From: Alphaproteobacteria bacterium
GTDB lineage: Bacteria > Pseudomonadota > Alphaproteobacteria > Rs-D84
DNA length: 64,000 bases
Assembly (NCBI GenBank): GCA_017511715.1
Contig: JAFWJF010000007.1
Location: 6,421-70,420 of the forward strand
Reading direction: 5' to 3'
Of the stretch, positions 13,801-50,892 are shown piece by piece. The position numbers and the translations under genes were made by a program. The stretch's first letter is position 1, and each line of letters starts with the position of its first letter. Below the pieces are notes generated by a model. The model made no database searches. It was not told where the DNA came from and saw nothing but the letters and a program-made list of their open reading frames with translations.

Positions 13801-14143
13801 TAAAACATCTTATACGGTCGGTTTATATTCTGAATTCTTGGCACGTATGTATTTGCGTTTTCACGGATACAAAATATTGAAAAGCAGATATATTACCGGA
13901 AAAAATACTAATCGTGCCGAAATAGATATTATTGCCAGGCACAAAGACACAATTGTTTTTGTTGAAGTCAAAGCACGGAAAAACACTTCTGCGGCGTGGG
14001 ACGCAATAACACCGAAACAGTCGTTGCGCCTGCGTCGTGCCGCAGAAACATACTTAATAAAAAAACAATGGACAGGAAATGCCCGCTTTGATGTGATTAT
14101 TGTTTGCGGGCATAAAATATATTGGTCCAAGAACGCTATTTAA
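13790..14143 (+). CDS. yraN: YraN family (UPF0102) predicted endonuclease
   Basis: Start overlaps previous gene by 11 nt; motif EIDIIARHKDTIVFVEVKARK typical of UPF0102. Confidence 0.75.
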   Translation: MLFNKTSYTVGLYSEFLARMYLRFHGYKILKSRYITGKNTNRAEIDIIARHKDTIVFVEVKARKNTSAAWDAITPKQSLRLRRAAETYLIKKQWTGNARFDVIIVCGHKIYWSKNAI

Positions 14144-14418
14144 TTTTTTATAACCGCACTTTTAATTAAAGTGACATCTTCTTTGATTCCATCTATTTTC
14201 AATTGCAATTGCCCAATACCAGATTCCAATATTGTTGTGCGATTTTCCAGGGCTATTATTCGTTGATCCTGTCTGTCGATTTCTGAAACATAAGAATCTT
14301 GCCGGGCAACCCAATATATTATTCCTGCGATAAAAGCAATTAAAAACCAACTTTCGCGCAGGGTATCTATAAAACTAAAAATATTTTGTTGTTTGGTCAT
14401 GATAAAAGATAATTTCAC
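14140..14418 (-). CDS. Small membrane/coiled-coil protein, last gene of virion-like cluster
   Basis: 92 aa with one TM helix then coiled coil. Confidence 0.35.
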   Translation of the reverse strand: MKLSFIMTKQQNIFSFIDTLRESWFLIAFIAGIIYWVARQDSYVSEIDRQDQRIIALENRTTILESGIGQLQLKIDGIKEDVTLIKSAVIKN

Positions 14419-14425
14419 ATAAAAT

Positions 14426-14635
14426 TTATGTTATATTATTCCCCCGTTTTATAAGATTTTCTATTTGATGGACCAGCGCATTTTGCGCCGCCCACCAACG
14501 CAATTCGTCATTTGAAGCGTTTTGCCCCATAATACGTTCTCTTGTTATTGCGCGCAAATGATTCAAGACTTGTTTTCCTGATGCAGTGTTGAAAACACGT
14601 GCATAATGTTTTTCTATATCATTCATTTTACGCAC
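14426..14635 (-). CDS. Small hypothetical protein (69 aa) in virion-like cluster
   Basis: ORF only; tightly packed after portal gene. Confidence 0.3.
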   Translation of the reverse strand: MRKMNDIEKHYARVFNTASGKQVLNHLRAITRERIMGQNASNDELRWWAAQNALVHQIENLIKRGNNIT

Positions 14636-14638
14636 CCT

Positions 14639-15862
14639 TTATATAGACATTTCTTCGCGTGCCATTTGTGCGATTGGTGCAATGTATTTTAATTCTGCAT
14701 CGCTGTGCAAAGATATCGGTTCGATTAAACCACGTCTTGATAATATCTGAAGCCCTCTTTCACAAAGCGGTTTAATAAATTCTTGTAACAAGCGTCCGTA
14801 TGTCGCACCTAAAATACGCACCATATCGGAATTGCGCGCCAATATTTCTGTGGCGGTCATTTCTTTATCTGAAAGAAGCCCTAACCTGTCTGCCAAAAGG
14901 GTGTGACGTATTCTGTCGCGCAAATCGCGTAAAACTATTTGTGAAACATCAAAATTAGAACCACTGGTTAATGGGGTTAAACCCGAACTGCCGACAGCCT
15001 TTGGAATTATTGCCCCTGGGGTCAAATTGATATTAGACAAATTGATAACCCCATCGTCATCAGCCTGCCATATACCACTTACCGCAATTGTCGCGTTTTT
15101 AAGGACCAATTCAACAACTTTGTTTGCAGTTTTAATGTCTGGCAATGCGCGCAATACCGGACTGCGCCCGTATAATTCACCACTTACCAGCGACCAACGG
15201 AATATAATATAAGGATTGGTTTCAAAAGTTCCGCGTGCAACGATATTATTTTCAATATCACCACCAACATCAACCCACGCGGTAAAATCTTTACCTATTA
15301 ACGATTGAACTAATCTGATTGGGGTTTCTGGGTTTGCTTTTATTGTATCACGCAAATTCGCAGGGAATACAAATTGCGGATATTTTTCCATCAAATCACT
15401 TGCCGGCAAAGAAGTCGTATGAAATACCATGCCCGGCAATATCGCAATGTCTTTCATTGGTATCGCAGTAAACGAAAACGCAGAATCTGAACCAATTGGG
15501 TTTTCCGCCATAAATAAACATGCAGTACCAAGGACAACCAAATCAATATAACACTGATGCACGGTTGTATAAAAATTAGAATCGTTCAAATGGGCGCGCA
15601 ACACAGCTGTTGCTACATCTGCATCTGGGGATAAATCACTTTCGCGAACAAGGTTTATCCACAAAGATTCTGGTGGAGTTAAAAGTGAATACATTGATGC
15701 CGCCAGATTATCCACTGCATCTGCCGCAGTTGCATCAAATAACGTTGCTGATTCTGTGTCGTCTGTTGGGACAGTATAACGCAACGCATTTTTCCAACGT
15801 GGCAACCATTGTTCCCTTTCATCAAGAGCGCGTTTATATAATTGCATAAGATTTTTTTGCAT
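14639..15862 (-). CDS. Phage portal (head-to-tail connector)-like protein
   Basis: 407 aa immediately downstream of terminase nuclease half. Recalled (not searched) resemblance to podovirus connector proteins, including a YGRS motif. Confidence 0.55.
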   Translation of the reverse strand: MQKNLMQLYKRALDEREQWLPRWKNALRYTVPTDDTESATLFDATAADAVDNLAASMYSLLTPPESLWINLVRESDLSPDADVATAVLRAHLNDSNFYTTVHQCYIDLVVLGTACLFMAENPIGSDSAFSFTAIPMKDIAILPGMVFHTTSLPASDLMEKYPQFVFPANLRDTIKANPETPIRLVQSLIGKDFTAWVDVGGDIENNIVARGTFETNPYIIFRWSLVSGELYGRSPVLRALPDIKTANKVVELVLKNATIAVSGIWQADDDGVINLSNINLTPGAIIPKAVGSSGLTPLTSGSNFDVSQIVLRDLRDRIRHTLLADRLGLLSDKEMTATEILARNSDMVRILGATYGRLLQEFIKPLCERGLQILSRRGLIEPISLHSDAELKYIAPIAQMAREEMSI

Positions 15863-15882
15863 TTGTTTTTCCTTTTGTTTTG

Positions 15883-16731
15883 TTATATTTGGAAGTCTGT
15901 ATTTGCACGAATCTGATTTAGAGTCCTGCCCTGTGGTCTTGCAGGAACAGGTGTCATAGAAACAGCACCTGCCAATGCATCCAAACCATCATCGTGTTCT
16001 TTGGAACCCATTGGTGTAAACGCCAACATTTCTGCCAACAGCATCGTTTGCTTTATTCTTTCGTGCATATAAAGATGACCTGTTGAAAGCAAAGGTTCCA
16101 AAGCGTTCAAAATTCTTGTTTCTTTTTTTATATGATTAGAAATTTGTATAATATTTATATTTCTTTGGTGTTTGCGCGCAATATCTCGCATAATTTCTGG
16201 CAACGCATTACCAATGCCATTTGTTTCAATACCTATTCTGAATAAATTGTGTTTCTGCATAAAATCAAGAACACTAATACATTGGTTTGTCAAAGGATGC
16301 ATATCTTCATCTTCAACCCCCATGTATATTATATCGTGCACAAAAACGTTTCTGTTTTTATCATCACGATAAACCAACACACAGACACTGCCATCATGAT
16401 TTTGGCGTCCTGTTGATGGGTCCCAATAACACGCCATACCTGTAATATTATTTTCACCGATTCGCGATGAAAACAAATCAAAATCATCAGAATAAAAATG
16501 AACCGCCCCAGGATCCAGTTGAACGCGTTCTTGGGCGACATATTCCAACATCATTTGTGCAGAAAAATGTCGCTGTCCAACAATATCTGCCAATTCATGT
16601 ATTTTTTCAATTGGAAACATTTCTGGCCATGCTGGGTTTCCCGCAGCGTCAATAATAGGTATTTTCAATTGCTTATACCCCTGTAAAAAAGGTATTGAAT
16701 TCTGAAAATTTTCGTTTAATCTAATAGACAT
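15883..16731 (-). CDS. Terminase large subunit, C-terminal nuclease half
   Basis: 282 aa with RNase-H-like terminase nuclease motifs (YWDPSTG, IETNG, HDDGLDALAGA). No ATPase motifs. Its ATG overlaps the dnaB ATG in a CATG tetranucleotide. Confidence 0.7.
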   Translation of the reverse strand: MSIRLNENFQNSIPFLQGYKQLKIPIIDAAGNPAWPEMFPIEKIHELADIVGQRHFSAQMMLEYVAQERVQLDPGAVHFYSDDFDLFSSRIGENNITGMACYWDPSTGRQNHDGSVCVLVYRDDKNRNVFVHDIIYMGVEDEDMHPLTNQCISVLDFMQKHNLFRIGIETNGIGNALPEIMRDIARKHQRNINIIQISNHIKKETRILNALEPLLSTGHLYMHERIKQTMLLAEMLAFTPMGSKEHDDGLDALAGAVSMTPVPARPQGRTLNQIRANTDFQI

Positions 16732-18280
16732 GGACTTTACTCCGAAAACTTTACCTACTAACCTAGAAGCCGAACAGGCCGTTTTGGCTGCGGTATTGAT
16801 GAATAACCGCGCACTGGAATCAGTATCTGATTTTTTGTTGCCGGAACATTTTTCGCATCCTGCACACCAAGAAATTTACAGACTGGCAATGCGTCAATTT
16901 GCCGTTGGAATTCCATTTGATATAATTACCGCCAAAACATACCTTGAACAGCAAGGCACTCTTGAAACCGTCGGTGGCGTTGAATATTTATCAAAATTGG
17001 CTTCTGCTGGCTCTACCGTGGTAAATGTTGAACATTACGGACACATTGTTTTTGATAATGCCCGCCGTCGTGATTTAATTCAGTTGGGACAAAGCATTAT
17101 TGATGATGCTTATACCGAAGATTTAGACAAAACAGTAAATGCACAGATAGAATCTGCGGAACAAAAACTGTTTAATCTTGCATCCACTGGACAAAGTGAA
17201 CACAACGTTGTATCTTTGGCGGACGCATTGAAAAGCGCATTACAAGAAGCCGAAATCGCATATAAAGCAGATGGAAAGTTATCTGGTCTTACAACCGGGT
17301 TGGACGATTTAGACAAATCAATAAGTGGCTTACATCATTCTGATTTAATCATTATTGCTGGTCGTCCTGGTATGGGAAAAACGACATTGGCAATGAACAT
17401 CGCATTTAATGCTGCAAACGCTATATTGAACGAACGCGCGAACGCACAATATAAAGGCGCGGTCGCATTTTTTAGTCTTGAAATGTCTTTTGCGCAATTG
17501 GCAACACGTGTGTTGTCTTCTCAATCAAAAATACCAGCGACACGCATGCGTGAGGGTAATTTGACAGATGAAGACTTTATGAAAATGTCACAATACAGTG
17601 AAGCACTGTCAAAAGTTCCTGTGGTCATTGATGACACGGCAAACATGTCTGTTGCGGCAATAAAAACACGTGCCCGCAGAATTGCCCGTAAATATGGCAA
17701 TATCGCATTGATTGTTATTGACTATTTACAGCTGATGACTTCACCTGGTGGCAAACACAACGACAATCGTGTTCAAGAATTATCAGAAATCACGCGTGGC
17801 TTGAAAATTTTAGCCAAGGAATTAGATGTTCCTGTTATCGCATTGTCTCAGTTATCACGAAGTGTCGAACAACGTGATGACAAACGCCCTGTATTATCAG
17901 ATTTGCGTGAATCTGGTTCTATTGAACAAGATGCGGATATTGTTATGTTTACATACCGCGAAGAATATTACCTTGAAGGACGTTCACCTGATAAAAAATT
18001 ATCCGGGACCGCATCTGAAACGTCCATGCAAAATTGGCAAAAACGCTTAGATAATGTTCGCAACAAAGCAGATGTTATCATCGCCAAGAACCGCCATGGT
18101 AAACCAGAAACTGTTCATTTAAGCTTTACCGGCGAATATTACCTGTTTGATAACCTTAATCAATTTGGTCCACAGCCAACACATGATTCTGAATTTGGAA
18201 ACCAATTCACAACAGCCACATCCGACACAAATATACCAAATGTTGCAGACATTAATGATATTCCTGACGATATGATTTAA
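16730..18280 (+). CDS. dnaB: Replicative DNA helicase DnaB
   Basis: 516 aa; N-terminal LEAEQAVLAAVL motif, Walker A GRPGMGKTT, RecA-like core, ~40 aa C-terminal extension. Confidence 0.92.
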   Translation: MDFTPKTLPTNLEAEQAVLAAVLMNNRALESVSDFLLPEHFSHPAHQEIYRLAMRQFAVGIPFDIITAKTYLEQQGTLETVGGVEYLSKLASAGSTVVNVEHYGHIVFDNARRRDLIQLGQSIIDDAYTEDLDKTVNAQIESAEQKLFNLASTGQSEHNVVSLADALKSALQEAEIAYKADGKLSGLTTGLDDLDKSISGLHHSDLIIIAGRPGMGKTTLAMNIAFNAANAILNERANAQYKGAVAFFSLEMSFAQLATRVLSSQSKIPATRMREGNLTDEDFMKMSQYSEALSKVPVVIDDTANMSVAAIKTRARRIARKYGNIALIVIDYLQLMTSPGGKHNDNRVQELSEITRGLKILAKELDVPVIALSQLSRSVEQRDDKRPVLSDLRESGSIEQDADIVMFTYREEYYLEGRSPDKKLSGTASETSMQNWQKRLDNVRNKADVIIAKNRHGKPETVHLSFTGEYYLFDNLNQFGPQPTHDSEFGNQFTTATSDTNIPNVADINDIPDDMI

Positions 18281-18305
18281 TTTTTACTTGCCAAAGTTTA
18301 GAAAA

Positions 18306-18340
18306 TTGACTAACATTTTGTCAACATATGTATATTCAGG
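18306..18340 (+). promoter_or_regulatory. Promoter with palindromic operator-like site (TTGAC-N9-GTCAA) upstream of XRE repressor gene
   Basis: -35 ttgact, -10 tatatt, RBS caggag. -35 lies inside inverted repeat ttgactaacattttgtcaa. Confidence 0.4.
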
Positions 18341-18348
18341 AGTCCACC

Positions 18349-19356
18349 ATGGCACAAGAAGAAATCATTTTTCCAAATAATATCCGTAACATTCGTGCAA
18401 GCAAAGGTATGAAAATGACAGAATTGGCACGCCGTGCAAATTTGTCATTGTCTGCTGTATCAAAGATTGAAAAAGGCGTTCGCCGTCTTAATCAAAAGCA
18501 GTTGTTAAATGTATGCACTATCTTGGGCTGTAAATTGTCGGATATATTTATTCACGAATCTGATTCTGTTGCACAAAATTGGCAAAACGAAATCAAACGT
18601 CGTTTAACAGACAACGAAGATAGCGGCTTGAAAATATTTGGTTCTGGTCTTCGCAAAATTCGCCAACGCACCGAAAAGACTATCGCCCAGGCCGCACACG
18701 ATGCAAAAATGACATTATCTGTGTATCATAAAATCGAAGTCGGTCAACGCGAAGTTTATGAAAACGAAATCGAAGTTTTGGCCCAGGCTTTTGGGTATAA
18801 AGCCTCTGAATTATTTGACGAAATCGCAAAACTTTACAAGGCTGGTGAATTAACAAAACAGATTAACAAAGTCAAAGAACGTGTCAAATCTGTTTTAGAG
18901 CCTGTAAATCCTATTTCTGGTCTTGACATTCATGGCGGTCTTTACGGCGCACAATTATATGATAATGCCCGCAAAAAATTAGTTCCTGTATTTGGCAAGC
19001 CTTCTGGTAAATCTATCAAATTGAAAAAATCTGATGAAACAATGATTGTGGCACCAACTACATTGGAAGGACACACTGGAATATATGCAGTTGTACCTAA
19101 TTCCAAAAGGTTAGGAGGTTTTGTTCCTGAATCTTCATATATTTTTGTAGACTCTAATTCAACACCAAAAGTTGGTGATTTGGCGGTCTGCATAAATGAA
19201 GATTTTGATAAATTGCCACTTGATGGTACGGCCGATGCCCAGGTTGTGGTTGTTCGTCAAGACAGCCATGGAAAAATGTTTGGTCACATATCTAACCCAG
19301 AAGAAAAGATTTCTGGTAAAACTTTTCACAAGGTTGTTATGATAGTGATGCAATAA
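18349..19356 (+). CDS. Tandem XRE-family HTH repressor with C-terminal S24/LexA-like (apparently non-catalytic) domain
   Basis: Two HTH_3-like segments (MTELARRANLSLSAVSKIEKG; TIAQAAHDAKMTLSVYHKIEVG). C-terminal beta-rich domain resembles S24 peptidase fold but lacks the GDSM serine motif. Confidence 0.65.
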   Translation: MAQEEIIFPNNIRNIRASKGMKMTELARRANLSLSAVSKIEKGVRRLNQKQLLNVCTILGCKLSDIFIHESDSVAQNWQNEIKRRLTDNEDSGLKIFGSGLRKIRQRTEKTIAQAAHDAKMTLSVYHKIEVGQREVYENEIEVLAQAFGYKASELFDEIAKLYKAGELTKQINKVKERVKSVLEPVNPISGLDIHGGLYGAQLYDNARKKLVPVFGKPSGKSIKLKKSDETMIVAPTTLEGHTGIYAVVPNSKRLGGFVPESSYIFVDSNSTPKVGDLAVCINEDFDKLPLDGTADAQVVVVRQDSHGKMFGHISNPEEKISGKTFHKVVMIVMQ

Positions 19357-19388
19357 GGCACTATCTCAAAACACAGGGGAGAGAGAAA

Positions 19389-20030
19389 ATGCAACAGCAA
19401 GCACACACAATCGCGCAACGTTTATTAAACCTTTACCGCCAGGCACATGTTATCGAAGGTGGCTGGGCAGCAGTTAATAAAGTTTTTATTGCAGAATCTA
19501 ATGATGCCCAAGTTATCACGGAACTGGAAAACCTGCCGACCGGCAAACGATTGGTTGCACACATTAATAACCTGCGCAGTGGTAAAACCCCTATGGATTC
19601 CATAGACAAAGATTTGCTGCCATATGGTGGTTTGATGTCTGGGGCGACAGGAAACGTTTCTTTAACCAAAGAAGAAATAAAACAGTTAAAACAAGCGCTA
19701 GATTCTTTTCAACCAACCACAGAAAGTCTGGATGTTATCAAAAACTTACCTTTCGTCAAAAAATTTGGTAACGATTGGGTTGATGACATAAGGTCTGCGA
19801 TTGCGTTTGATAATGATATGCTTACAAAATGGCGCACTGTTGCCCAAACAGACAAGGCATACAAAATCTGGAACAGCGCAAAAGAATTATTATCAGAAAC
19901 ATTGACAGAACGCAATCGTGCCCAAATTCAAGCAGACATGCTGGAATATGAAACTTATTTACCAATGTTTGGCGATGCAGGCAAAGAAGTTTTATCTAAA
20001 CTTCGTACATTTATGTCTTCGCTGTCATAG
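19389..20030 (+). CDS. Hypothetical protein (213 aa) in dnaB-repressor cassette
   Basis: RBS gggagag; no recognisable motifs. Confidence 0.35.
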   Translation: MQQQAHTIAQRLLNLYRQAHVIEGGWAAVNKVFIAESNDAQVITELENLPTGKRLVAHINNLRSGKTPMDSIDKDLLPYGGLMSGATGNVSLTKEEIKQLKQALDSFQPTTESLDVIKNLPFVKKFGNDWVDDIRSAIAFDNDMLTKWRTVAQTDKAYKIWNSAKELLSETLTERNRAQIQADMLEYETYLPMFGDAGKEVLSKLRTFMSSLS

Positions 20031-20031
20031 G

Positions 20032-20667
20032 CTATTCAATTTTGTATATTGTGTCTTGCGTGTGTGGGGTTCCTATGAAAATCATAGTTCCATTTGGCGA
20101 CAATATAAAATCTAGTTCGCGCAGTCTTTCCCGCAGGTTTATTCGTTTTTGCTGTGTATTGCAGGTATTCGGCACTTCTACGTCATCACATATAATCAAA
20201 TCAGAACGCATACCTGTTATATTGCCAGAAATTCCCTGACAAATAACGGATGGTTCTCTGATTCCGATTGGACGATTGATGGTTATTTTATGCGATCCCC
20301 ACTCTTTTTTTACATCCGGCACAATACCTTCACACCACGGGTGATTTTCAATGATATTTTTTATATGCGCCACCATGCGCGATGCCAACCCAGATTCCGC
20401 AGATAATATTAAAATTCTGGTTTCTGGTTTATGATACAATACACACGCAGCAAACACACCAACAACTGTTGATTTCCCAGAATGCCGAAACGCATTTAAC
20501 AGACCGCGATGTGGCGAATTGTTAAACACATCGACCAAAAAACTGAGTATTTGCCGGTGATGTTTTGGCGTTTGCAAACCCAAGACTTTATTCCATGCAT
20601 CTAAGAAATTAAATGCTTCCGTAATCGTCATTGTTTTCGCCATCTGCGTCTTCTGCCACAGAACCAT
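20032..20667 (-). CDS. Terminase large subunit, N-terminal ATPase half
   Basis: 211 aa with Walker A (RHSGKST), Walker B (LIICDDVE) and coupling motif (IFIGTP); ends with a stop, no nuclease domain. Confidence 0.7.
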   Translation of the reverse strand: MVLWQKTQMAKTMTITEAFNFLDAWNKVLGLQTPKHHRQILSFLVDVFNNSPHRGLLNAFRHSGKSTVVGVFAACVLYHKPETRILILSAESGLASRMVAHIKNIIENHPWCEGIVPDVKKEWGSHKITINRPIGIREPSVICQGISGNITGMRSDLIICDDVEVPNTCNTQQKRINLRERLRELDFILSPNGTMIFIGTPHTQDTIYKIE

Positions 20668-21145
20668 AATCGTTTATCATATCTTGTAATACAGACACCA
20701 AATTGTAATACAACCCCAGCACTGCACCGCCCGACATTTTATCTTCTATGGTTGATATTGCATAATCAATTTTTGTCAAAAGATTATCATGGACATTTGC
20801 CCACTGTGCCAAATCGACATCTATGCTGCGAATATCCTGCAGGGCGGCCAATAAAAAATTGAAATCAGTATTCAAATCTTCTGGATCTATTTTAGCAGTT
20901 GTCTGGTAATCAATAACACGGGATAAATCTACTTGACGAAAGATATCTATATTCTTGTTATTTTCTGGTGCGCTGGCAAAAACAACTATGCCCCCACCAA
21001 AATCGTCGTTTGGATTCACTGCGTATTGAGTAGTGTCTAAAACAGTATTATCAATACTAACCTTGACATCAGATTCTTGAAAGAACGGGAAAGAAAATGA
21101 AAATTCTGAGGTTTCTCCATCCCCAACATAAGAGATTTTATACAT
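20609..21145 (-). CDS. Tail fiber-like protein (conserved fiber N-terminal motif)
   Basis: N-terminus YVGDGETSEFSFSFPFFQESDVKV resembles the conserved N-terminal anchor motif of many phage tail fiber proteins. Confidence 0.4.
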   Translation of the reverse strand: MYKISYVGDGETSEFSFSFPFFQESDVKVSIDNTVLDTTQYAVNPNDDFGGGIVVFASAPENNKNIDIFRQVDLSRVIDYQTTAKIDPEDLNTDFNFLLAALQDIRSIDVDLAQWANVHDNLLTKIDYAISTIEDKMSGGAVLGLYYNLVSVLQDMINDYGSVAEDADGENNDDYGSI

Positions 21146-21154
21146 TTTATCCCC

Positions 21155-21502
21155 CTATCCTGCTATTTTATCAACATTTGCCAACCAAGTTTGTAATATG
21201 TTTGGTTTTTTTACTTTCAGTTTATTTATTTTATCCATATTATCTTTTCGTTTTGTATCGTATGGTTGTGCCGTTTCATCACGCAAACGCTTTAATACGG
21301 CGTTTTCAGACAAACCGTTCCCACTGTTTCCTGACGCACCATATTTAGCACGTTGTGATGCTAATGCTTTTTTTATTAAATTTGTTTTATTGGCTTCATC
21401 TTGAGCCATTTGTGCCAATATTTTTTGGCGTTGATTTTCTGCTTCTTTTTTAGAGTCTTTATAATCTAAAACCTTGGTTACATCTGATACTAATTGTCCC
21501 AT
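21155..21502 (-). CDS. Hypothetical virion-associated protein (115 aa)
   Basis: ORF in structural module; Lys-rich, no motif. Confidence 0.3.
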   Translation of the reverse strand: MGQLVSDVTKVLDYKDSKKEAENQRQKILAQMAQDEANKTNLIKKALASQRAKYGASGNSGNGLSENAVLKRLRDETAQPYDTKRKDNMDKINKLKVKKPNILQTWLANVDKIAG

Positions 21503-21517
21503 AAATTACCTCCTTTG

Positions 21518-23230
21518 TTAAATTAAATACCAACCGTCAACAGTGACAGATAATATTGTTGCGCCTAATTGTTCATCGCTGGACACTGTCCAAAGGGGTT
21601 CCATTGTGTTAATTTGAGACCCCAACAAATTCATTGACAAATCACCGTCATACCCCAAAGCATTTGCTTCATAAACGGAATTAGGGATTTCAACACGATA
21701 ATTGTTTATAAACACTGTTTTTGTGTCTTTTACACGCAAAGAAACCTTACGCGCACGAATCTTTTTAGGATTATGCCCATTAACAATCATTGGCAAGGCC
21801 GATATTTTGTATGTAAATTTATACGTTTGAGCATCAATTAAATGCTCTGTGTCAAATTTTTCCAGATAATATTTATTATCTCGTTTTACAATCACATAAG
21901 TATTGTTATCAAAAACGGCGACATATTTGAAAGCACCATCTGTTATATATTTTCCCCATGCTCTAATATCTGTATTTGGGTGCTTATTAAGAACGGCCAT
22001 ATATCCATCAGACATAACTATAAACAACTGATGCGTCAACTGATTAAAGGCGATACTAATCGGATTTCGCATCAAATGTTTTGCCCAAGAGCATAAATCA
22101 TTTGCATTGTATTTTTGACTTAAATCATCCAAGTCTAATTCGCGCACATCTTTGCCTGATTGAGATACAAATACTGTTGCGCCTTCTATTTGTTGCGGCG
22201 GCAAATAAATATTTGTGATACTGCCGACAGAAGTATGTTGTTTAATATTAACATTTGATGGGGTTAACGGAGAATTAGAAATCGCCCATTCGCCCACAGA
22301 AGTCAATATTTGCAAATTATCACTGCTGACTATTGTTGATATTTGATGGTGTTGAGATGATAAAAGCGTCATAAAAATCGCATCATCATCCAGTCCTTCG
22401 CCACTGTCAAAGTTATCATAATCACCAACCTTAGACATCCATATATTGTTTGGCGCAGACTTTGTTCCGCCGAACACCAGCCTGTTTTGATGGAAAGATA
22501 CAGCGCGTGGCCATCCGCGTTTATTACTGAATGCACCGACATACCAATCGCTAATCGCATGTCCGGGACACGTAAATGTACCATTTGTATAAACTATCGC
22601 TACACGCGCACTTTGGACAGATTCGACCAACCATTGTTTCCCATTTATTAGCAATCTTTCCCAAAGCCAATCATTTGCCCAAATATCTTTATCCGCAGTA
22701 AACACAGCATGATTGTTATCAATATCACTGTTCGTGATTGTAATCGACACACCATTCATATCGTCAAACCGCATGAAAGGAACGTTTACAGTCACATCTG
22801 TATTGATATGAAACACGAATTCTTCAATATGAAAACCGCTTGCTTCTTTTGTAAGAATTTGTGGCTTAAAATCTGGATGAACAAAAAAGATTTTATTAAA
22901 TCTTTGTGCGTATTGCAGTTGTTTCAAATCTAAATCAGCCCAATCTGCCGACAAAGATTCTATTTTTTCATCGTTTTCATAGATATCTATGATACGACCA
23001 TAAATAACTAACAAATATTTTTCACTTTCGCTTATTTTGAATGGCACTATTATCGCATCATCTGGTATTTCGTCTATTTGCTTTAAGCCTGGTCTGCGTT
23101 TCAGAGCACCAGATTGTAAAACGTCCATATTTTCAAGACACGTAAGTCCATTATTGTTATTTATCGCGTAAAATTCTGGCGACACTTCACCAAAGGAAAA
23201 AATATTTTGTGTTTTAAGAAAATTTCCCAT
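21518..23230 (-). CDS. Putative tail (tubular/nozzle-like) protein, 570 aa
   Basis: Largest structural ORF, sits where podovirus tail tube B would be; assignment by position and size only. Confidence 0.35.
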   Translation of the reverse strand: MGNFLKTQNIFSFGEVSPEFYAINNNNGLTCLENMDVLQSGALKRRPGLKQIDEIPDDAIIVPFKISESEKYLLVIYGRIIDIYENDEKIESLSADWADLDLKQLQYAQRFNKIFFVHPDFKPQILTKEASGFHIEEFVFHINTDVTVNVPFMRFDDMNGVSITITNSDIDNNHAVFTADKDIWANDWLWERLLINGKQWLVESVQSARVAIVYTNGTFTCPGHAISDWYVGAFSNKRGWPRAVSFHQNRLVFGGTKSAPNNIWMSKVGDYDNFDSGEGLDDDAIFMTLLSSQHHQISTIVSSDNLQILTSVGEWAISNSPLTPSNVNIKQHTSVGSITNIYLPPQQIEGATVFVSQSGKDVRELDLDDLSQKYNANDLCSWAKHLMRNPISIAFNQLTHQLFIVMSDGYMAVLNKHPNTDIRAWGKYITDGAFKYVAVFDNNTYVIVKRDNKYYLEKFDTEHLIDAQTYKFTYKISALPMIVNGHNPKKIRARKVSLRVKDTKTVFINNYRVEIPNSVYEANALGYDGDLSMNLLGSQINTMEPLWTVSSDEQLGATILSVTVDGWYLI

Positions 23231-23248
23231 ATAAAAACTCCCTTGGTT

Positions 23249-23776
23249 CTAGAATCTAGAATCTATCAAAGAAAAACTTTCAATATTTGATTGATTTGAT
23301 GTTGTGCTGTCTATAAATTTGGCAGATTGATATTCAGATTCATATAATGCGCTCATCATTCTGAAAACATTTGCATCCCCAATCAGTGGTATACAAAATT
23401 CCATTGCTAATTTCGTAGCCAACAATGTAGCAAAATATCCAGGAAACATTTCTGGTTCCGTTTTTACTACCGCTGTTATCTTTAATGTATTTTCTGCTGC
23501 TTTTATTCTGTTGCCGATAATTTGACCATTACATTTCAAGATTCTTAAAACTTCTGTTGGAATCAGAAAATCATCGTCTTGTGTTTTATTTAACACTAAT
23601 TCTTTGGTTGCAAACCGCCATGGGAACAAAGACAACAAAGTATCCAAAGTCGGATCAAACAAAGTTCGTGCTAATTGTGCGGCGGCACTGTCTTCACGCC
23701 ATGATTGGATTGGTTTTTCACCAAGTTTTAACAATGCCATCGAACATAAATCTATTTTTGTAAACATAATTCGCAC
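23249..23776 (-). CDS. Putative tail tubular A/adaptor-like protein, 175 aa
   Basis: Position between capsid-like and large tail-like genes. Confidence 0.3.
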   Translation of the reverse strand: MRIMFTKIDLCSMALLKLGEKPIQSWREDSAAAQLARTLFDPTLDTLLSLFPWRFATKELVLNKTQDDDFLIPTEVLRILKCNGQIIGNRIKAAENTLKITAVVKTEPEMFPGYFATLLATKLAMEFCIPLIGDANVFRMMSALYESEYQSAKFIDSTTSNQSNIESFSLIDSRF

Positions 23777-23824
23777 CTATTTATTGAAAAAAATCAGGGG
23801 ACAAATGTCCCCTGATTATGATTA

Positions 23825-24055
23825 TTAAGATAATGCACCAACCGTCACAACACCTTCTGCAACAGTGATAACTTTTATCGCAGAACCATTAGAACCATTG
23901 ATTAAAATGATGTCTCCTGTGTTCATAAGATTTTTCAAGCTGGAAAAATATCCAGATGCGGTTATCGTTGCCAATGTCGCGTTTTCTTTATAATGCCACA
24001 AAGTAAAACCATTTGCATATGCAATCACAGACAAATTTTTATTCTGAAAAGCCAT
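23825..24055 (-). CDS. Small hypothetical structural protein (76 aa)
   Basis: ORF directly downstream of capsid-like gene. Confidence 0.3.
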   Translation of the reverse strand: MAFQNKNLSVIAYANGFTLWHYKENATLATITASGYFSSLKNLMNTGDIILINGSNGSAIKVITVAEGVVTVGALS

Positions 24056-24077
24056 CGTTCTTCCTTTTAGTTATAAA

Positions 24078-24902
24078 TTATTGGGCATCATCATCACATT
24101 TGATACGGACGATACCTTCGTTATCAATTAAAACTGCACCTTGGGACATGCTGTTGCTGATAAAGTGCGCCGCACGTTCACCATGCCATGTGATATCTGT
24201 TTTAACTTCTTGACCGCAGGCATGACCAATACTAGATGCATGGTACATAAAGCAATCACGATCATCGTCACTGATTGGTAATGAATTGCACAGAATCCAA
24301 TTCACACCCAACCATTTACGCGATTCGCAACCATCAACCAATGGTGTGGCATTTCCGACATAGTCAGCAGAAACAAATTCATCCAACGCCAACAATTCAT
24401 TCCATTGATGAACACCAACAATGGCAAATCTGCGACCATCATCAGGAACATCATTGGCATTAAGTTTTTCTAATGCTTCCATTATCAAAGCTTTTGTTAA
24501 ACCAGTTGAATAATCACCAACATATTGTGTTGCACTGTTCATAGCATTGATAATCAATTCATCTGTTTTGCGCCCCAACGCATATGCACCAGCAGACGCA
24601 ACAACACGACGTTCATCGACATTGGTTTTCAATTCATCCAACGAATCAACCCAATCACCTGCATAATAATCTTGCAAAACGCATTCAACAGGTGTGTGAT
24701 TCAGATTCATCACAGGAACAATCCCATGACGTGATTTTGTGCTGGCAATACCTTTGCCAACTTTTTGGAAAGTAGTAGATGCACCAACAACCCCGGTTTT
24801 ACTGCGGATTGTAGAGCGCAATTTTGTGCCCATTTGCTGATAAGCCAAATGAACATCTGCTTCAAATTGTTTTACAAACACTTGATCTACAGACATAGAC
24901 AT
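24078..24902 (-). CDS. Putative major capsid protein (274 aa)
   Basis: Position after scaffold-like gene, size compatible with small HK97-fold coat protein; no search performed. Confidence 0.4.
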   Translation of the reverse strand: MSMSVDQVFVKQFEADVHLAYQQMGTKLRSTIRSKTGVVGASTTFQKVGKGIASTKSRHGIVPVMNLNHTPVECVLQDYYAGDWVDSLDELKTNVDERRVVASAGAYALGRKTDELIINAMNSATQYVGDYSTGLTKALIMEALEKLNANDVPDDGRRFAIVGVHQWNELLALDEFVSADYVGNATPLVDGCESRKWLGVNWILCNSLPISDDDRDCFMYHASSIGHACGQEVKTDITWHGERAAHFISNSMSQGAVLIDNEGIVRIKCDDDAQ

Positions 24903-25145
24903 AAGTAATCCTTTTTGTTAAATCGAAACACGCCATGATGGCGTAATTTATAAAAATTTTGTTTTATGGTTATGCGATAATTCGCGCCACAAACACAAAA
25001 CAACACAAAAAAGGGTCCAAAAGAAATTGGATTATCCAATAAAAAATTCAGTCTGACTTTAACATCGGACTGAAAAATTTATCATCAAAAAAGTCCCCAA
25101 AACCAAGCGTTTTAGGGACTTTTATTAAAAGATTTTTTTACAATC

Positions 25146-25466
25146 TTATTTTTTCTTAACTACTTTTTTAGCAGCTGGTTTTTTTGCAGCAACTTTTTTT
25201 GCAGCTGGTTTTTTTGCAACTGCTTTTTTAGCAACTGGTTTTTTTGCAGCTGGTTTTTTTGCAACTACTTTTTTAGCAGCTGGTTTTTTTGCAACTACTT
25301 TTTTAGCAACTGGTTTTTTTGCAACTACTTTTTTAGCAGCTGGTTTTTTAACAGCAACTTTTTTTGCAGCTGGTTTTTTTGCAGCAACTTTTTTAGCAGG
25401 TGCTTTTTTTGCAGCTGGTTTAGCAGCTGGTTTTGCGCATGCGCATTTTTTCTTTAAGCCAAACAT
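25146..25466 (-). CDS. Histone H1-like Lys/Ala-rich DNA-binding protein (tandem AAKKPAAKKVV repeats)
   Basis: 106 aa, ~10 tandem KKPAAKKV(V/A) repeats encoded by 30-nt DNA tandem repeats; N-terminal KKKCACAK. Confidence 0.6.
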   Translation of the reverse strand: MFGLKKKCACAKPAAKPAAKKAPAKKVAAKKPAAKKVAVKKPAAKKVVAKKPVAKKVVAKKPAAKKVVAKKPAAKKPVAKKAVAKKPAAKKVAAKKPAAKKVVKKK

Positions 25467-25563
25467 AATTCTCTCCTTCTATAAGTTTTGGACAGAACAA
25501 AATTATTTTGTTCTTAAACATATTTTATATGATTCAAAACAAATAGTAAAGAATAAAAATTAT

Positions 25564-26220
25564 TTATGAGTATAATTTTCTGAAACCATTTTCAATTTTT
25601 CTTATGTATTCAGGATCTTGGTCGCGCCAATATTTTGGATCACGCATCATGTTGCGCAACATGTCATCGGACAAATTTTCTGTTGCGTTTTTATCGGTCA
25701 AAACACTTGGTTCAAAAGATTGCATCATCTTATAAACGCCTTGTATTCCCTGGGGTGTAGCGCACAGTTCTTCAAATGCATCAGCAGGCAAATACTTTTC
25801 ACCAAATGCTTTTATTTCACGCAACGCATCGTTCATTTTTTCTGATGATCCAAAAAAATTTTTCAATTCATTTATTGCATTTGATTGATTTTGTAATGCA
25901 AATAAATTTTTTAATGTTGGTTGTAAAAATTCTTCTGCTATCGAATAAATTTTTTCAACTTGTTGTGATGTAAGACCAATTTCATGAAATTTTTCACGAA
26001 CCGATTCGTCATCAAATAAATCATTTACAGGATAATCAGACGCGTTATCTGGCACACCAATTGCATGATTAAATTTTTGTTTTGTGTCTGTATCACTGTC
26101 ATCTTTTGGAATCGAAATCATATTGCCCATCTTTTTTTCAAGTTCGCAATAAGACTTAACCAACGCAGAAGTATTTAATTCGCCGTTTTCATCAAGAAAC
26201 TTTTCAGGTATTTGTTCCAT
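25564..26220 (-). CDS. Scaffolding-like acidic helical protein (218 aa)
   Basis: Acidic, helix-rich, directly upstream of H1-like and capsid-like genes. Confidence 0.35.
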   Translation of the reverse strand: MEQIPEKFLDENGELNTSALVKSYCELEKKMGNMISIPKDDSDTDTKQKFNHAIGVPDNASDYPVNDLFDDESVREKFHEIGLTSQQVEKIYSIAEEFLQPTLKNLFALQNQSNAINELKNFFGSSEKMNDALREIKAFGEKYLPADAFEELCATPQGIQGVYKMMQSFEPSVLTDKNATENLSDDMLRNMMRDPKYWRDQDPEYIRKIENGFRKLYS

Positions 26221-26411
26221 TATTTTTTCCCTTTGATTGCTGATTCTTGTTTAAGGAAATATATTCCGCCCAACGTAAATATTGTTTGCATCATTGTAAA
26301 AATATCTTCGTCACCGATTAAATAAGCACCTATTGCAGATATTATACCGACACTTGATACGACATAAGTTTTTTTGTCTTTCAAATATCCACCTTTGATT
26401 ATTTTATTCAT
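26220..26411 (-). CDS. Holin-like small membrane protein (63 aa)
   Basis: One or two TM helices, charged C-terminus, directly downstream of endolysin. Confidence 0.4.
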   Translation of the reverse strand: MNKIIKGGYLKDKKTYVVSSVGIISAIGAYLIGDEDIFTMMQTIFTLGGIYFLKQESAIKGKK

Positions 26412-26428
26412 TGTTTGTCCTTTTTTAT

Positions 26429-26839
26429 TTACAAATAAAACAAAATATCTTCACATTCTGATATGTATCCGCGCGCCATTGCCCAATCTGGAATAATATT
26501 TGTGTGATGAAATTTTGTTGCGCCGAAAACAGAATCAGGCAAATTTCCACGCATCATTGTTTTTACCGTGCGCAAACACAATTGAAATTTTCTGTCATTT
26601 GCATCTATGTTCAATTTTTCATTACGTTCTGATTTTGTGTTCAGACATTCAAACAAATCAGAATCTTTTGATATTGCATCAAAAGTTTTTCCGTACTTAA
26701 TATGAACATTGTTTATCATGGATGTCATCGCTTCTATAAGTGGCAGCGATTTAGCTTCTGTTTCTGCGAACACAATGCGCGCCAATTTATATGATACGAT
26801 TTGTGCATCATCATTGTTTTTTATCAAAGTTAATTGCAT
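26429..26839 (-). CDS. Cell wall hydrolase SleB-type (Hydrolase_2) endolysin
   Basis: Starts MQLTLIKNNDD at 26839; motifs ARIVFAETEAKSL ... ATKFHHTNIIPDWA typical of SleB-family amidase used as endolysin. The table ORF extends upstream across terminator hairpins using a TTG, so the 26839 start is preferred. Confidence 0.7.
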   Translation of the reverse strand: MQLTLIKNNDDAQIVSYKLARIVFAETEAKSLPLIEAMTSMINNVHIKYGKTFDAISKDSDLFECLNTKSERNEKLNIDANDRKFQLCLRTVKTMMRGNLPDSVFGATKFHHTNIIPDWAMARGYISECEDILFYL

Positions 26840-26861
26840 ATTTTTGCCCCGGTTTTTAGTT

Positions 26862-26928
26862 AAAAAAAGCCCGTGCAAAAAAATGCACAGGCAAAAATAA
26901 AGAATAAAAAAAACCGCAAACACTGCGG
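26862..26928 (-). terminator. Two tandem intrinsic terminators in the leader of the virion/lysis operon
   Basis: Minus-strand hairpins ccgcagtgtttgcgg+U8 (26906-26928) and gcctgtgca-ttttttt-gcacgggc+U7 (26862-26892), between promoter and endolysin start. Confidence 0.6.
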
Positions 26929-26939
26929 ACATAATTTCT

Positions 26940-26985
26940 ATTCTTGATGCTTTATATAATATCACAAATTGACACAAAAGTCAAG
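26940..26985 (-). promoter_or_regulatory. Strong sigma70-like promoter for virion/lysis operon (also birA terminator region)
   Basis: Minus strand TTGACT-17 nt-TATTAT; -35 lies in palindrome TTGAC-N6-GTCAA. Confidence 0.55.
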
Positions 26986-26990
26986 ACATA

Positions 26991-27677
26991 TTAAATGCTA
27001 ATTTCATCACCGTATGTTAAAACATATCGTGTATCAAAACGCAAAACCAACGCACCATCTTCATTTATGCCAATTAATTCTGCTTTTTTTCCTTGATAGC
27101 AAACCATTTTATTTATACACAGAGCTAATTCCATCCACCTTTTGCGAACATCGTAAAATTGTGCATTGCGCCACTTGTCCAATTTTCTCATCAGTACACC
27201 AAGCACCTCTTCAACCGACACATCAACATAGTTTTTTATTTTAGTGGTTTGATATTCTTTGACTGTTGGGCATGTTTTTATATTGATACCGATACCGACT
27301 ATCACAAAATTTTGAGCATACTCAATCAATATACCGCTTATTTTTTTACCATCTATTAAAATATCATTAGGCCATTTTATTTGCGGTTTTAACCCAAAAG
27401 AAATAAGAGTTTCTGCAACCGCAACCGCTATTGCATAAGACAAACGCGGGTCCCGCTCTATATCCCTGTAAATAAATGATGCATATAAATTTCCACGATG
27501 AGAAACCCAATTGCGTTTATACCTTCCGCGACCAGCACTCTGGGCCAAAGCCGTTACAACAGTTTTATCGGCTACTTTTTTTTGTGCGATTAAATCATGC
27601 GCATAATCTTGGGTGCTGGCAATCTTATCAAAAGAAATCAATTTATATGCGCCCAATTTTATATCCCCCATTTTCAT
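26991..27677 (-). CDS. birA: Biotin--[acetyl-CoA-carboxylase] ligase (group I, no DNA-binding domain)
   Basis: GRGRxxRxW motif (SAGRGRYKRNWVS), KWPND motif, C-terminal SH3-like domain. Confidence 0.85.
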   Translation of the reverse strand: MKMGDIKLGAYKLISFDKIASTQDYAHDLIAQKKVADKTVVTALAQSAGRGRYKRNWVSHRGNLYASFIYRDIERDPRLSYAIAVAVAETLISFGLKPQIKWPNDILIDGKKISGILIEYAQNFVIVGIGINIKTCPTVKEYQTTKIKNYVDVSVEEVLGVLMRKLDKWRNAQFYDVRKRWMELALCINKMVCYQGKKAELIGINEDGALVLRFDTRYVLTYGDEISI

Positions 27678-28062
27678 TCACAATAAAATTGTGCCCATAT
27701 TTTTTACGCAGTTGATAGATTGCGTTTTCTACGCTGTGTGTGGCAATATCCGGTAAAAAACCAACTGCCAATTTCAATTCTTGCATTTGGATATGTGGTT
27801 TTTTATAAAGTGCGACAATAATTTTTCGCTGCAATTCAGACAAGACTTCATCGTGTCCAAAAACATTGGCAATAATATCGTTATTATTAAAGCGATTTGA
27901 AATCAGATTCTGTAAATCATCAACCGCGATTGGCGCATTTATTTTGATATCATCAAACAAAATGTCAGCATCTTCTGGTTTAGTGACCAAACACGCACCT
28001 AAATCAGTCAAAATACGATTCCAGTATTTATCCGCGGTATAAATTTTTATATTTTCCAACAT
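27643..28062 (-). CDS. OmpR/PhoB-type winged-helix DNA-binding protein with short non-receiver N-terminus
   Basis: C-terminal 65 aa fit Trans_reg_C pattern (LSELQRKIIVALYKK...AIYQLRKKYG...GGYKIG); N-terminal 60 aa too short for a REC domain. Overlaps birA start by ~35 nt. Confidence 0.45.
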   Translation of the reverse strand: MLENIKIYTADKYWNRILTDLGACLVTKPEDADILFDDIKINAPIAVDDLQNLISNRFNNNDIIANVFGHDEVLSELQRKIIVALYKKPHIQMQELKLAVGFLPDIATHSVENAIYQLRKKYGHNFIVNENGGYKIGRI

Positions 28063-28107
28063 ATTTACACAATACCGAATAAAACGACACTGTGCAAGGT
28101 TTTATTG

Positions 28108-28353
28108 CTACATACTATGCGGTTCATGGGCAGGGATAAACTTTGTAAAATCTTCCAACGAAGAACCAGTAGAAGCCAAAATTTTGGAAATACTGTTGGT
28201 TGATGGCCAACGTGGCTGTCCTTCTTTGGACCAGCGTTTGCTTTTGTTAAAGGTCGTTGGGTCCAAACCACTGCATTTAGCAAGCCCGGAACAAGACATA
28301 TTATGTTCCATTGCAAATTTTTCTATTGCACGCCACACATCTTCATGCGTCAT
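28108..28353 (-). CDS. Ner/Nlp-like HTH DNA-binding protein
   Basis: 81 aa; pattern W-x-D/E-V...LS...GL.PTT......W.KEG..RWP matches Mu Ner / Nlp family by eye. Confidence 0.5.
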   Translation of the reverse strand: MTHEDVWRAIEKFAMEHNMSCSGLAKCSGLDPTTFNKSKRWSKEGQPRWPSTNSISKILASTGSSLEDFTKFIPAHEPHSM

Positions 28354-28487
28354 AACGCTCTCCTTTTTTTATATATTTTCCTACAAGACAATCTAATATT
28401 AATTGATAAGCAACGCCATTTCAACCTATTATTTTTGGTATAAATTCCTGGGAATAAATAAAAACAAAAAAAATTTGACAAAATACT

Positions 28488-28522
28488 TGACAAACACAAT
28501 TTTGTGTATTATATTTCGATTC
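28488..28522 (+). promoter_or_regulatory. Promoter of candidate sRNA
   Basis: ttgaca-17-tatatt on plus strand. Confidence 0.45.
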
Positions 28523-28523
28523 G

Positions 28524-28700
28524 TCAAGGGATGAATAATCGTTTGACTATATCGGGCCCAGGGTTTTCAGACTCCCTCCTACATTCTCTCTCCTCTGGAC
28601 TTTGGGCCCAAACGACAGTTAAGGATGCCCGTTTCTTTTTCTCCTTTCCTTCCTTTCTGGGCATCCGGAAAAAGCCACCCCCGCGGGTGGCTTTTTTTTA
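28524..28700 (+). ncRNA. Candidate trans-acting sRNA with two stem-loops carrying CU-rich (anti-SD-like) loops and intrinsic terminator
   Basis: Stem 1 gggcccag...ctgggccc, loop CUCCCUCCUACAUUCUCUCUCCUCU. Stem 2 ggaugccc...gggcaucc, loop UUUCUUUUUCUCCUUUCCUUCCUUUCU. Terminator aaagccacccccgcgggtggc+U8. The in-frame ORF 28504..28749 is low-complexity and runs through the terminator. Confidence 0.4.
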
Positions 28701-50726: not shown

Positions 50727-50784
50727 TTTGTTTCCTTTTTTTATTTTTAATATTAAAAACCGAGATTGTATAACCTCGAAATAA

Positions 50785-50812: not shown

Positions 50813-50892
50813 GCCACTTCAACGACATCTAACAAAACGCGCTTTTTCACTGTTTTCTGGGAAAAAATTACTAAATAAAAATTTATAAAAAC

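Follow-up and report, generated by a model that had tools for sequence, protein, structure and literature searches.

To our knowledge, only a handful of independent lineages of gene transfer agents (GTAs) are known. GTAs of the RcGTA type, present in Rhodobacter and, as CcGTA, in Caulobacter, are built from phage-derived head, tail, terminase, and lysis genes. They are fixed in the chromosome and inherited vertically under purifying selection, and they carry neither an integrase nor a replication module; in all these respects, the element described here resembles them. In BaGTA of Bartonella, a run-off replication origin adjoins the GTA genes. The control of CcGTA combines activation with antitermination, as GafZ binds between the −35 and −10 elements and the polymerase then bypasses terminators inside the cluster (PMC11150451). 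FpGTA of Faecalibacterium prausnitzii was reported in 2026 as the first podovirus-like GTA-like element (PMC12946183). The present study concerns a 12.8-kb cluster of virion and lysis genes (positions 14140-26990) in contig JAFWJF010000007.1 of an alphaproteobacterium of Rs-D84 (GCA_017511715.1), an uncultured order whose genomes are mostly smaller than 1 Mb (PMC12306168). Positions refer to the window, that is, the whole stretch of 64,000 nucleotides (nt) that was analyzed.

The reading preferred here is that the cluster is a domesticated derivative of a T7/pelagiphage-like podovirus, kept by its host as a GTA-like viriform that would produce DNA-filled tailed particles and release them by lysis. 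A probability of roughly 0.6 is given to this reading. The initial annotation, made from the sequence of the window, had already suggested a domesticated or GTA-like element, and this is supported by the fixed locus, the intact genes, the low ratios of nonsynonymous to synonymous divergence (dN/dS, 0.03-0.15), and the codivergence with the flanking genes described below.

Conservation and inheritance of the cluster

Gene identities were assigned from an open reading frame (ORF) listing combined with searches of Pfam, PHROGs, NCBIfam, and PDB. The resulting set is of T7 type and consists of portal, scaffold, capsid, adaptor, nozzle, a fiber stub, and large terminase, together with a lysin and a holin-like protein; the assignment is carried by matches to PF12236, PF05396, PF19821, phrog_394, phrog_376, and PF03906/phrog_1640 and by the alignment with T7 gp19. 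The order on the minus strand is lysin, 63-amino-acid (aa) protein, scaffold, H1-like protein, capsid, p76, gp11-like protein, gp12-like protein, 115-aa protein, and fiber stub, followed by the N- and C-terminal pieces of the large terminase (TerL-N and TerL-C), the portal, a Bbp19-like protein, and a 92-aa protein. The virion and lysis genes named in the initial annotation were all recovered in their places with statistical family support. Its description of one minus-strand block holds for these genes but not for positions 16730-20030, which are occupied by plus-strand genes for DnaB (516 aa), a regulator with two helix-turn-helix domains (2xHTH, 342 aa), and a 213-aa protein (u213).

As had been noted before, the cluster is wedged between yraN (PF02021) and birA (PF03099), and no tRNA was found near it. 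A repeat search and inspection of the junctions revealed no direct repeats resembling attachment (att) sites around either the cluster or the 3.3-kb plus-strand insert. No cluster protein matched an integrase, a DNA polymerase, or a primase in Pfam, PHROGs, or NCBIfam. To this extent the claim that replication and integration genes are missing stands, although a dnaB gene, which is of cellular type, is present. No other phage genes occur among the remaining window ORFs checked; phage RNA polymerase, DNA polymerase, the gp14-16 core proteins, small terminase (TerS), and a full-length fiber are absent from the cluster and from these ORFs. The RcGTA-type families (siphovirus tail tube, tape measure, and distal tail proteins) are not represented among the cluster matches, the tail genes being gp11/gp12-like, and the T7-like content agrees with the earlier remark that gene order and podoviral ancestry differ from those of RcGTA.

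As in GTAs and other viriforms, we thus find a resident, phage-derived structural cluster without its own means of replication or integration. Tailocins are tails without capsid, portal, and terminase, whereas the cluster has conserved genes for all three and for a scaffold. The features of satellites such as phage-inducible chromosomal islands (PICIs), capsid-forming PICIs (cf-PICIs), and virion-encapsidated integrative mobile elements (VEIMEs), namely, an integrase, att sites, an own replication initiator, and variable insertion sites, were not found.

A species scan, with one genome per GTDB species, detected nozzle relatives in at least 430 species genomes. The best 80 (83-49% nozzle identity) belong to Alphaproteobacteria of the rumen, gut, and termite gut, many of them named “Candidatus Enterousia”, and include a complete chromosome of 958,618 bp (L077). 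About 80 species-level genomes of Rs-D84/“Ca. Enterousia” carry the whole arrangement, split terminase and gene order included, at this one locus on the birA side, so that the conservation in relatives, proposed earlier as a check, was observed. Occurrence of the same cluster inside a complete prophage of a relative, which would point away from domestication, was also looked for, and no such genome was found. The portal sequence is present on several metagenome contigs with identical layout. The nozzle has 1495 homologues; almost all of the best 120 (100-64% identity) have a length of exactly 570 aa, and these 120 lie on long bacterial contigs; gene order and flanking host genes are unchanged even on contigs whose nozzle is only 67-74% identical. 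A tblastn search over all loci found the virion genes and the dnaB-HTH-u213 insert to be full-length wherever the contig reaches (62-83 loci for each gene), with the exception of the fiber stub. Median identity to the window is 83% for the capsid, 81% for the portal, and 74% for TerL-N, as compared to 73% for DnaB, 78% for LpxI, 65% for BirA, and 59% for TrmA; the values for capsid and portal exceed those for DnaB, BirA, and LpxI.

Because synonymous sites are saturated between species (synonymous divergence, pS, ~0.6), dN/dS was pooled from up to 15 independent close pairs. The values range from 0.03 to 0.15 for cluster genes and from 0.045 to 0.15 for neighboring host genes (lpxI 0.045, birA 0.075, and trmA 0.136). 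Pairwise protein distances of virion genes follow those of flanking host genes (Pearson 0.84, 50 genomes). Taken together, these sequence comparisons show that the putative virion cluster has been coinherited vertically for a long time under purifying selection acting on its structural genes, as is the case for GTAs and related viriforms.

The combination of intact genes, low dN/dS, and codivergence practically rules out two other explanations. The first is a decaying, functionless prophage remnant that persists by chance, as the lack of integrase and phage replication genes, the interrupted terminase, and the truncated fiber might suggest. It is very improbable, given that the genes are intact in about 80 species in spite of saturated synonymous sites and that their dN/dS is equal to or below that of the housekeeping neighbors. 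In addition, the catalytic residues of both terminase halves are preserved, genomes of less than 1 Mb that are shedding genes have retained the cluster, and codivergence with the flanks argues against recent horizontal spread as the source of the selection signal. The second is an active small temperate podovirus or PICI-like satellite that is still mobile. A size of 12-13 kb is satellite-like, and IMG/VR classes such stretches as viral. The chances of this explanation are just as slight, since the chromosomal neighbors are the same in all genomes and codiverge with the cluster, integrase, att repeats, primase, and polymerase are missing, and the sole replication gene is the cellular-type dnaB.

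Virion, lysis, and terminase genes

The cluster genes are described in minus-strand order; those of the plus strand are indicated as such. The endolysin (26429..26839) is a SleB/Hydrolase_2-like protein of 136 aa (phrog_938, E=2e-6; dN/dS 0.148), and its orthologue in locus L009 and its Acetobacteraceae counterpart match PF07486. Its start is the ATG at 26839 and not the TTG of a 182-aa ORF that overruns the leader. A 63-aa protein with two hydrophobic segments (26220..26411) is holin-like by sequence; it matched no family in Pfam or PHROGs, is intact in 65 loci, and has a dN/dS of 0.079. The T7 gp9-type scaffolding protein follows (25564..26220; PF05396, E=1.8e-9; dN/dS 0.099).

Between scaffold and capsid lies a gene for a Lys/Ala/Pro-rich protein similar to histone H1/HC2 (25146..25466; PF07382, E=8.6e-18), which is composed of 15-nt periodic repeats. 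It has a promoter-like site of its own, a strong ribosome-binding site, and two downstream terminators (flank 24929-25140). A comparable gene (52-164 aa, ~37% Lys) occupies this position in all 67 Rs-D84 loci (67/67) and is not found in the Acetobacteraceae element described below. Its product may be a nucleoid protein or one that is packaged and condenses DNA.

The major capsid protein (MCP; 274 aa, 24078..24902) matches PF19821 (E=1.5e-72) and PDB entry 9eg4 (E=1e-33), with a dN/dS of 0.030. Since 9eg4, the closest solved capsid, has 7 chains per entry, the head is probably T=7, with a predicted capacity of ~35-40 kb. The capsid gene also has the lowest synonymous divergence of the genes compared (pS 0.21 versus 0.31-0.38 for most others), which hints at selection on codon usage and hence at high expression. 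The next gene encodes p76, a 76-aa protein of the virion module (23825..24055; phrog_18004, E=8e-14; dN/dS 0.044), whose homologue is placed after the MCP also in phage Hodr and in the phage-like scaffold MT838907. A hairpin search identified an internal terminator after capsid and p76 (23792..23817), with a strong 11-bp hairpin and a T-run; by strict criteria, a terminator is present at this position in 38 of 80 loci.

The tail is represented by a T7 gp11-like adaptor, or tail tubular protein A (23249..23776; phrog_394, E=1.5e-32; dN/dS 0.087), and by a T7 gp12-like nozzle, or tail tubular protein B, of 570 aa (21518..23230; phrog_376, E=9e-84; dN/dS 0.106), which also matches the “Tail Nozzle” of PDB entry 8ck1 (E=1e-38). 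The 115-aa protein that follows (21155..21502; dN/dS 0.079) is, by position, a possible small internal virion protein: it takes the place of a 146-aa Acetobacteraceae protein matching the internal virion protein family phrog_418 (E=0.0014), and the two have weak pairwise similarity (E=0.005). The 178-aa fiber protein (20609..21145; phrog_1640, E=1.8e-16; PF03906, E=1e-3) consists only of the N-terminal tail-attachment domain, without the receptor-binding part. At the other end of the cluster are the T7-type portal (14639..15862; PF12236, E=1.3e-81, and PDB portal matches; dN/dS 0.040), a Bbp19-like small phage protein (14426..14635; PF25181, E=4.5e-7), found after the portal in MT838907 as well, and a 92-aa protein with an N-terminal membrane segment and a coiled coil (14140..14418; dN/dS 0.073). 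The latter is spanin-like by composition and intact in 66 loci, and Pfam and PHROGs gave no family assignment for it.

The large terminase had been described as split. This is confirmed, and the halves are separated by the plus-strand insert of 3.3 kb containing dnaB, the 2xHTH gene, and u213, which had been overlooked and which leaves the terminase gene in two pieces. TerL-N (20032..20667; dN/dS 0.065) contains the ATPase core through motif III and covers residues 28-210 of T7 gp19 (E=2e-21), ending just past that motif; TerL-C (15883..16731; PF22530 and PF17289; dN/dS 0.113) contains the ATPase lid and the RNase-H-like nuclease. When joined, the pieces align with T7 gp19 (4bij, 8dgc), and comparison with an unsplit relative (L109) places the break between “GTPH..LY” and “RIPLLD”, within a variable loop and with no part missing. 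In 68 split and 10 unsplit sequences, Walker A (GKS; G64-K65-S66), the Walker B residues D161, D162, and E164 (DDxE), motif III (G199-T200-P201-H202), and the acidic residues D104, E169, and D247/D248/D251 of the C-terminal piece are invariant. The stop codons of TerL-N and u213 are 1 nt apart, and the start codons of TerL-C and dnaB overlap as CATG, an overlap shared by 45 of 68 genomes. As neither flanking repeats nor a recombinase are present and an intein half would find no space, the terminase likeliest works as an enzyme of two polypeptides. Two other routes to a functional terminase found no support: programmed excision rejoining the gene, as att-like repeats are missing around the insert, and a split intein, as TerL-N ends right past motif III and leaves no space for an intein half.

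DnaB (16730..18280, plus strand; dN/dS 0.055) passes the NF006606 equivalog for replicative DNA helicase (620 bits, cutoff 540) and also matches TIGR00665, whereas it scores under the cutoff of the phage_DnaB model. Given these results and its housekeeping-like conservation (median identity 73%, with the dN/dS just given), the most fitting interpretation is that this DnaB is the replicative helicase of the cell itself, its gene being nested antisense within a virus-derived gene. The 2xHTH regulator (18328..19356, plus strand; PF01381/PF13560; dN/dS 0.046) has two XRE-type domains and a C-terminal domain that matched no family; its median identity is 75%, and a single-sequence AlphaFold2 (AF2) model reached only a predicted local distance difference test score (pLDDT) of 36. 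The u213 protein (19389..20030, plus strand; dN/dS 0.106) is an all-helical orphan with a better AF2 model (pLDDT 83), which has no fold match; u213 matched no Pfam, PHROG, or NCBIfam family and has only 57 representative clusters among 1.84 billion proteins. In a divergent relative (L106, 4731-10749), the terminase is split by dnaB and an 834-aa ORF without family match in place of dnaB-HTH-u213. Because this insert differs, the dnaB insertion may predate 2xHTH and u213.

The leader and its control

The birA stop codon is followed by a promoter, two terminators (T1 and T2), and the lysin ATG, in this order and all on the minus strand. The promoter (26956..26984) has a −35 element TTGACT, a 17-nt spacer, a TGn extended −10, and a −10 element TATTAT. 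T1 (26906..26928) is formed by CCGCAGtgtTTGCGG and eight T residues and comes ~17-20 nt after the inferred transcription start, whereas T2 (26862..26892), formed by GCCTGTGCA-loop-TGCACGGGC and seven T residues, lies ~20 nt upstream of the lysin ATG. The near-consensus promoter with two terminators reported in the initial annotation is not peculiar to the window, as the same architecture is present in 64 of 64 orthologous loci, a recurrence that puts the leader far beyond chance. The −35 element is TTGACT in 59 loci, TTGACA in 4, and TTGATT in 1, and the spacer is exactly 17 nt in 64/64. The spacer sequence and the first ~16 transcribed bases, CAT(C/A)AA..., are conserved too. Two terminators are recognized by strict criteria in 55/64 loci and one in the remaining 9, while 99% of shuffled controls have no terminator at all. 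Across the loci there are 40 distinct stem sequences for T1 and 52 for T2, which means that pairing has been maintained through compensatory change. Neither the leader RNA nor the trmA-h81 spacer has an Rfam match above the gathering threshold, and the E-values are at chance level.

The gap of ~20 nt from T2 to the lysin ATG varies in sequence among loci, the first three cluster genes follow each other closely (gaps of 19 and 3 nt), and further terminators are found inside the cluster, around the H1-like gene and after capsid and p76. Since the T2-lysin gap has no place for a conserved promoter, the simplest route to expression of the operon is read-through, that is, processive antitermination, and the leader points to a putative antitermination gate. 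The lambdoid-type gated layout proposed before is in line with the conserved leader and its compensatory stem changes and has a parallel in the control of the Caulobacter GTA (PMC11150451).

An unlikely alternative for this part of the argument is that the promoter and T1 form a small RNA (sRNA) gene and/or serve as the birA terminator, the virion genes being expressed from other promoters without antitermination. T1 and T2 are located immediately past the birA stop codon, a transcript ended at T1 would be ~45 nt long with a conserved 5′ part, and a second conserved sRNA-like gene is located nearby. This would leave the virion genes in need of a promoter, for which the variable ~20 nt before the lysin ATG and the short gaps between the first three genes offer no conserved space, and the cluster-internal terminators would need read-through as well.

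Candidate antiterminator genes for the proposed gate are h81, h139, and those of the 2xHTH protein and u213. The small DNA-binding-type genes h139 and h81 (27643..28353, minus strand), upstream of birA, are syntenic in all loci and are candidate regulators. The h81 protein has a median identity of 90%, and an h81-like HTH gene adjoins the Acetobacteraceae element; a link of h139/h81 to the cluster is inferred. The −35 element lies within a perfect inverted repeat, TTGAC-N6-GTCAA (26969-26984), which spans the −35 and the spacer and might be an operator for a dimeric HTH protein; the pattern is not enriched over the whole window.

Divergent from h81, on the plus strand, a candidate sRNA of ~180 nt was observed (28487-28700). 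Its promoter is of the form TTGACA-17-TATATT, two of its three stem-loops bear C/U-rich, anti-Shine-Dalgarno-like loops of 22-26 nt, and it ends in a bidirectional terminator common to trmA. Its minimum free energy is −70.6 kcal/mol (z = −5.3), its core has an identity of 90% or more in 53 genomes, above any protein gene of the region, and it has no Rfam match. Elsewhere in the window, a 597-aa protein with a YadA-type anchor and a 1642-aa protein with a Listeria-Bacteroides repeat (49035-50828 and 56214-61142, minus strand) are probably surface adhesins, and the region of both has a shifted GC content.

Relatives, proposed function, and known systems

The closest cultured phage is the Pelagibacter podophage EXVC031P “Hodr” (OQ414635), with a capsid identity of 44%. 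Homologous capsid, portal, scaffold, p76, adaptor, nozzle, fiber N-domain, and lysin are found in Hodr and in HTVC019P-like and T7-like podoviruses, arranged as portal-(Bbp19)-scaffold-MCP-p76-gp11-gp12. Hodr, of 34 kb, also has an early/replication region and, after the nozzle, internal virion proteins of 783 and 1247 aa, which the cluster lacks; unlike in Hodr-type phages, the portal block of the cluster comes after the terminase and the lysis genes are at the front. A human fecal virome scaffold (MT838907) has a capsid of 63% identity and the order portal-Bbp19-scaffold-MCP-p76-gp11-gp12. A megablast search of the cluster and of 25 kb of neighboring host DNA against GenBank phage records gave no match, which says nothing about packaging.

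IMG/VR contains more copies of the Rs-D84 cluster and, as a second group, high-GC elements of 12-13 kb whose TerL is unsplit. Sister-type sequences of this kind were observed in Acetobacteraceae genomes (L173-L176) and in IMG/VR (L108-L122). The unsplit TerL is 68-95% identical across many Acetobacteraceae genera, and in Pararoseomonas, Pseudoroseomonas, Paracraurococcus, and Crenalkalicoccus, the 12-kb element has near-equal gene lengths. It encodes portal, scaffold, MCP, gp11, gp12, the 146-aa protein, a fiber of 760-772 aa, a 101-113-aa protein from a TerS-positioned gene, TerL, small proteins, and a SleB-type lysin and is followed by the host gene DUF952 in three of the four genera. None of the four has an integrase in the element, and a scan found no equivalent of the promoter and double-terminator leader upstream of its portal gene. 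The Rs-D84 and Acetobacteraceae elements share nine homologous genes, with a capsid identity of 57%, and from these sequences the sister element looks like a second domesticated lineage.

From the genes present, GTA activity of the Rs-D84 cluster is plausible, and a mode of action can be proposed. The strong sigma-70-type promoter would be constitutive, with transcripts ending at T1/T2, which would keep a lethal operon off by default. A factor acting like lambda Q or Caulobacter GafZ would make RNA polymerase resistant to terminators, and the modified polymerase would pass the leader as well as the terminators near the H1-like gene and downstream of the capsid gene. Read-through would probably continue antisense across dnaB to TerL-C and the portal. 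The two terminase polypeptides would assemble as one enzyme; without a small terminase, packaging would start without sequence preference, and the capsids, probably T=7, would be filled with host DNA. Holin and lysin would then free the particles. With no ejectosome proteins and a fiber stub only, DNA entry would rely on the recipient.

Several points weigh against a DNA-transferring particle of this kind. A small terminase, T7-type internal core/ejection proteins, and the receptor-binding part of the fiber were not found in the cluster, and the fiber stub gene itself is absent from about one-fifth of orthologous loci (e.g., L009 and L077). A T=7 head of ~35-40 kb would hold the whole 12.8-kb cluster, so that the particle would not be limited to less DNA than its own genes, the limit expected of a classical GTA. 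TerL-C and the portal lie 3.3 kb downstream of TerL-N, beyond antisense genes, and no conserved sigma-70 promoter for them was found upstream, inside dnaB. T1 and T2 stand directly downstream of birA and for this reason act partly as its terminators. No protein of the Q, GafZ, or NusG-paralogue families was matched in Pfam, PHROGs, or NCBIfam, neighboring ORFs included. The organisms are known only as metagenome-assembled genomes, and particles, packaged DNA, and transfer are predictions from the genes.

The same gaps in the gene set bear on the question of whether the cluster was domesticated and selected for another function, such as interference with podoviruses (a capsid or terminase decoy), programmed lysis releasing DNA or public goods, or killer particles. 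This is rather unlikely. TerS and ejection proteins are missing and the fiber stub is often lost, related free phage-like sequences occur in the same habitats (MT838907, with its MCP 63% identical), and the selection data show a function without telling which one. However, head, portal, scaffold, both terminase domains, adaptor, and nozzle are conserved with intact catalytic residues, and a decoy or a lysis device needs less than this; tailocin-type killers, moreover, have neither capsids nor terminases.

A more far-reaching version of the GTA-like viriform reading can be considered only tentatively. It would make the cluster part of a second ancient alphaproteobacterial GTA lineage, derived from a T7-like phage and fixed in Rs-D84 and Acetobacteraceae, the latter form having an unsplit terminase and a full fiber. 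The Rs-D84 form would combine a natural two-piece large terminase, with neither small terminase nor ejectosome, with a double-terminator gate opened by a new kind of processive antiterminator. Late transcription running antisense through dnaB would provide an interlock with chromosome replication, and headfuls of ~35-40 kb, ~4% of a genome of less than 1 Mb, would offer recombination to clonal, shrinking genomes.

If the GTA-like reading is true, this T7-type, order-wide element would be a new GTA lineage in uncultured gut and rumen bacteria. Genomes of less than 1 Mb spend ~1.4% of their length on the cluster, which is relevant to the question of how mutational decay is avoided in reduced genomes. 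A large terminase that is naturally split would be useful in dissecting the packaging motor, and the clean, conserved promoter and double-terminator gate would provide a handle for finding a new antiterminator, while an essential replicative helicase gene within a virus-derived gene is an unusual nesting in itself. Because cultivable strains (Roseomonas and relatives) carry the sister element, the idea is open to experiment. Full-text searches on Enterousia/Rs-D84 phages, podovirus or T7-like GTAs, Acetobacteraceae GTAs, and split terminases yielded no description of the element, and its split terminase, nested dnaB, and double-terminator gate are unprecedented.

In Aeromonas phage Aeh1, a homing endonuclease gene interrupts nrdA, and the products of the two parts remain functional as a pair. 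There too, inserted DNA has left an enzyme gene as two ORFs; in the cluster, by contrast, the insert is 3.3 kb long, lies on the opposite strand, and brings an essential-type host gene and no endonuclease, and TerL function is deduced from conservation. The lambdoid PR′-tR′ unit controlled by Q likewise has a strong promoter, one or more terminators at once, and then lysis and structural genes in one direction, whereas the cluster has two tandem terminators, no recognizable Q-family protein, and embedded host genes. BaGTA, also a domesticated particle system, is physically coupled to a replication function, as the cluster is through its neighbor; this neighbor, however, is a cellular dnaB antisense in the terminase gene, with no phage origin identified, and a functional coupling to replication through dnaB is speculation.

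FpGTA is likewise a GTA-like element of gut bacteria for which a podovirus-like morphology has been proposed (PMC12946183). It differs in its Firmicutes host, in its two loci, which include baseplate genes, and in having experimental packaging data, whereas packaging by the cluster is predicted from its genes; the two were compared by description. From the RcGTA type, finally, the cluster is set apart by its T7-type portal, scaffold, adaptor, and nozzle, in place of the tape measure and tail tube of a siphovirus-like particle, and by its split terminase; no link to GafA/GafYZ or CtrA was found. The head of RcGTA is small, T=3, and oblate, whereas that of the cluster, as a scaffold is present, is probably full-size.

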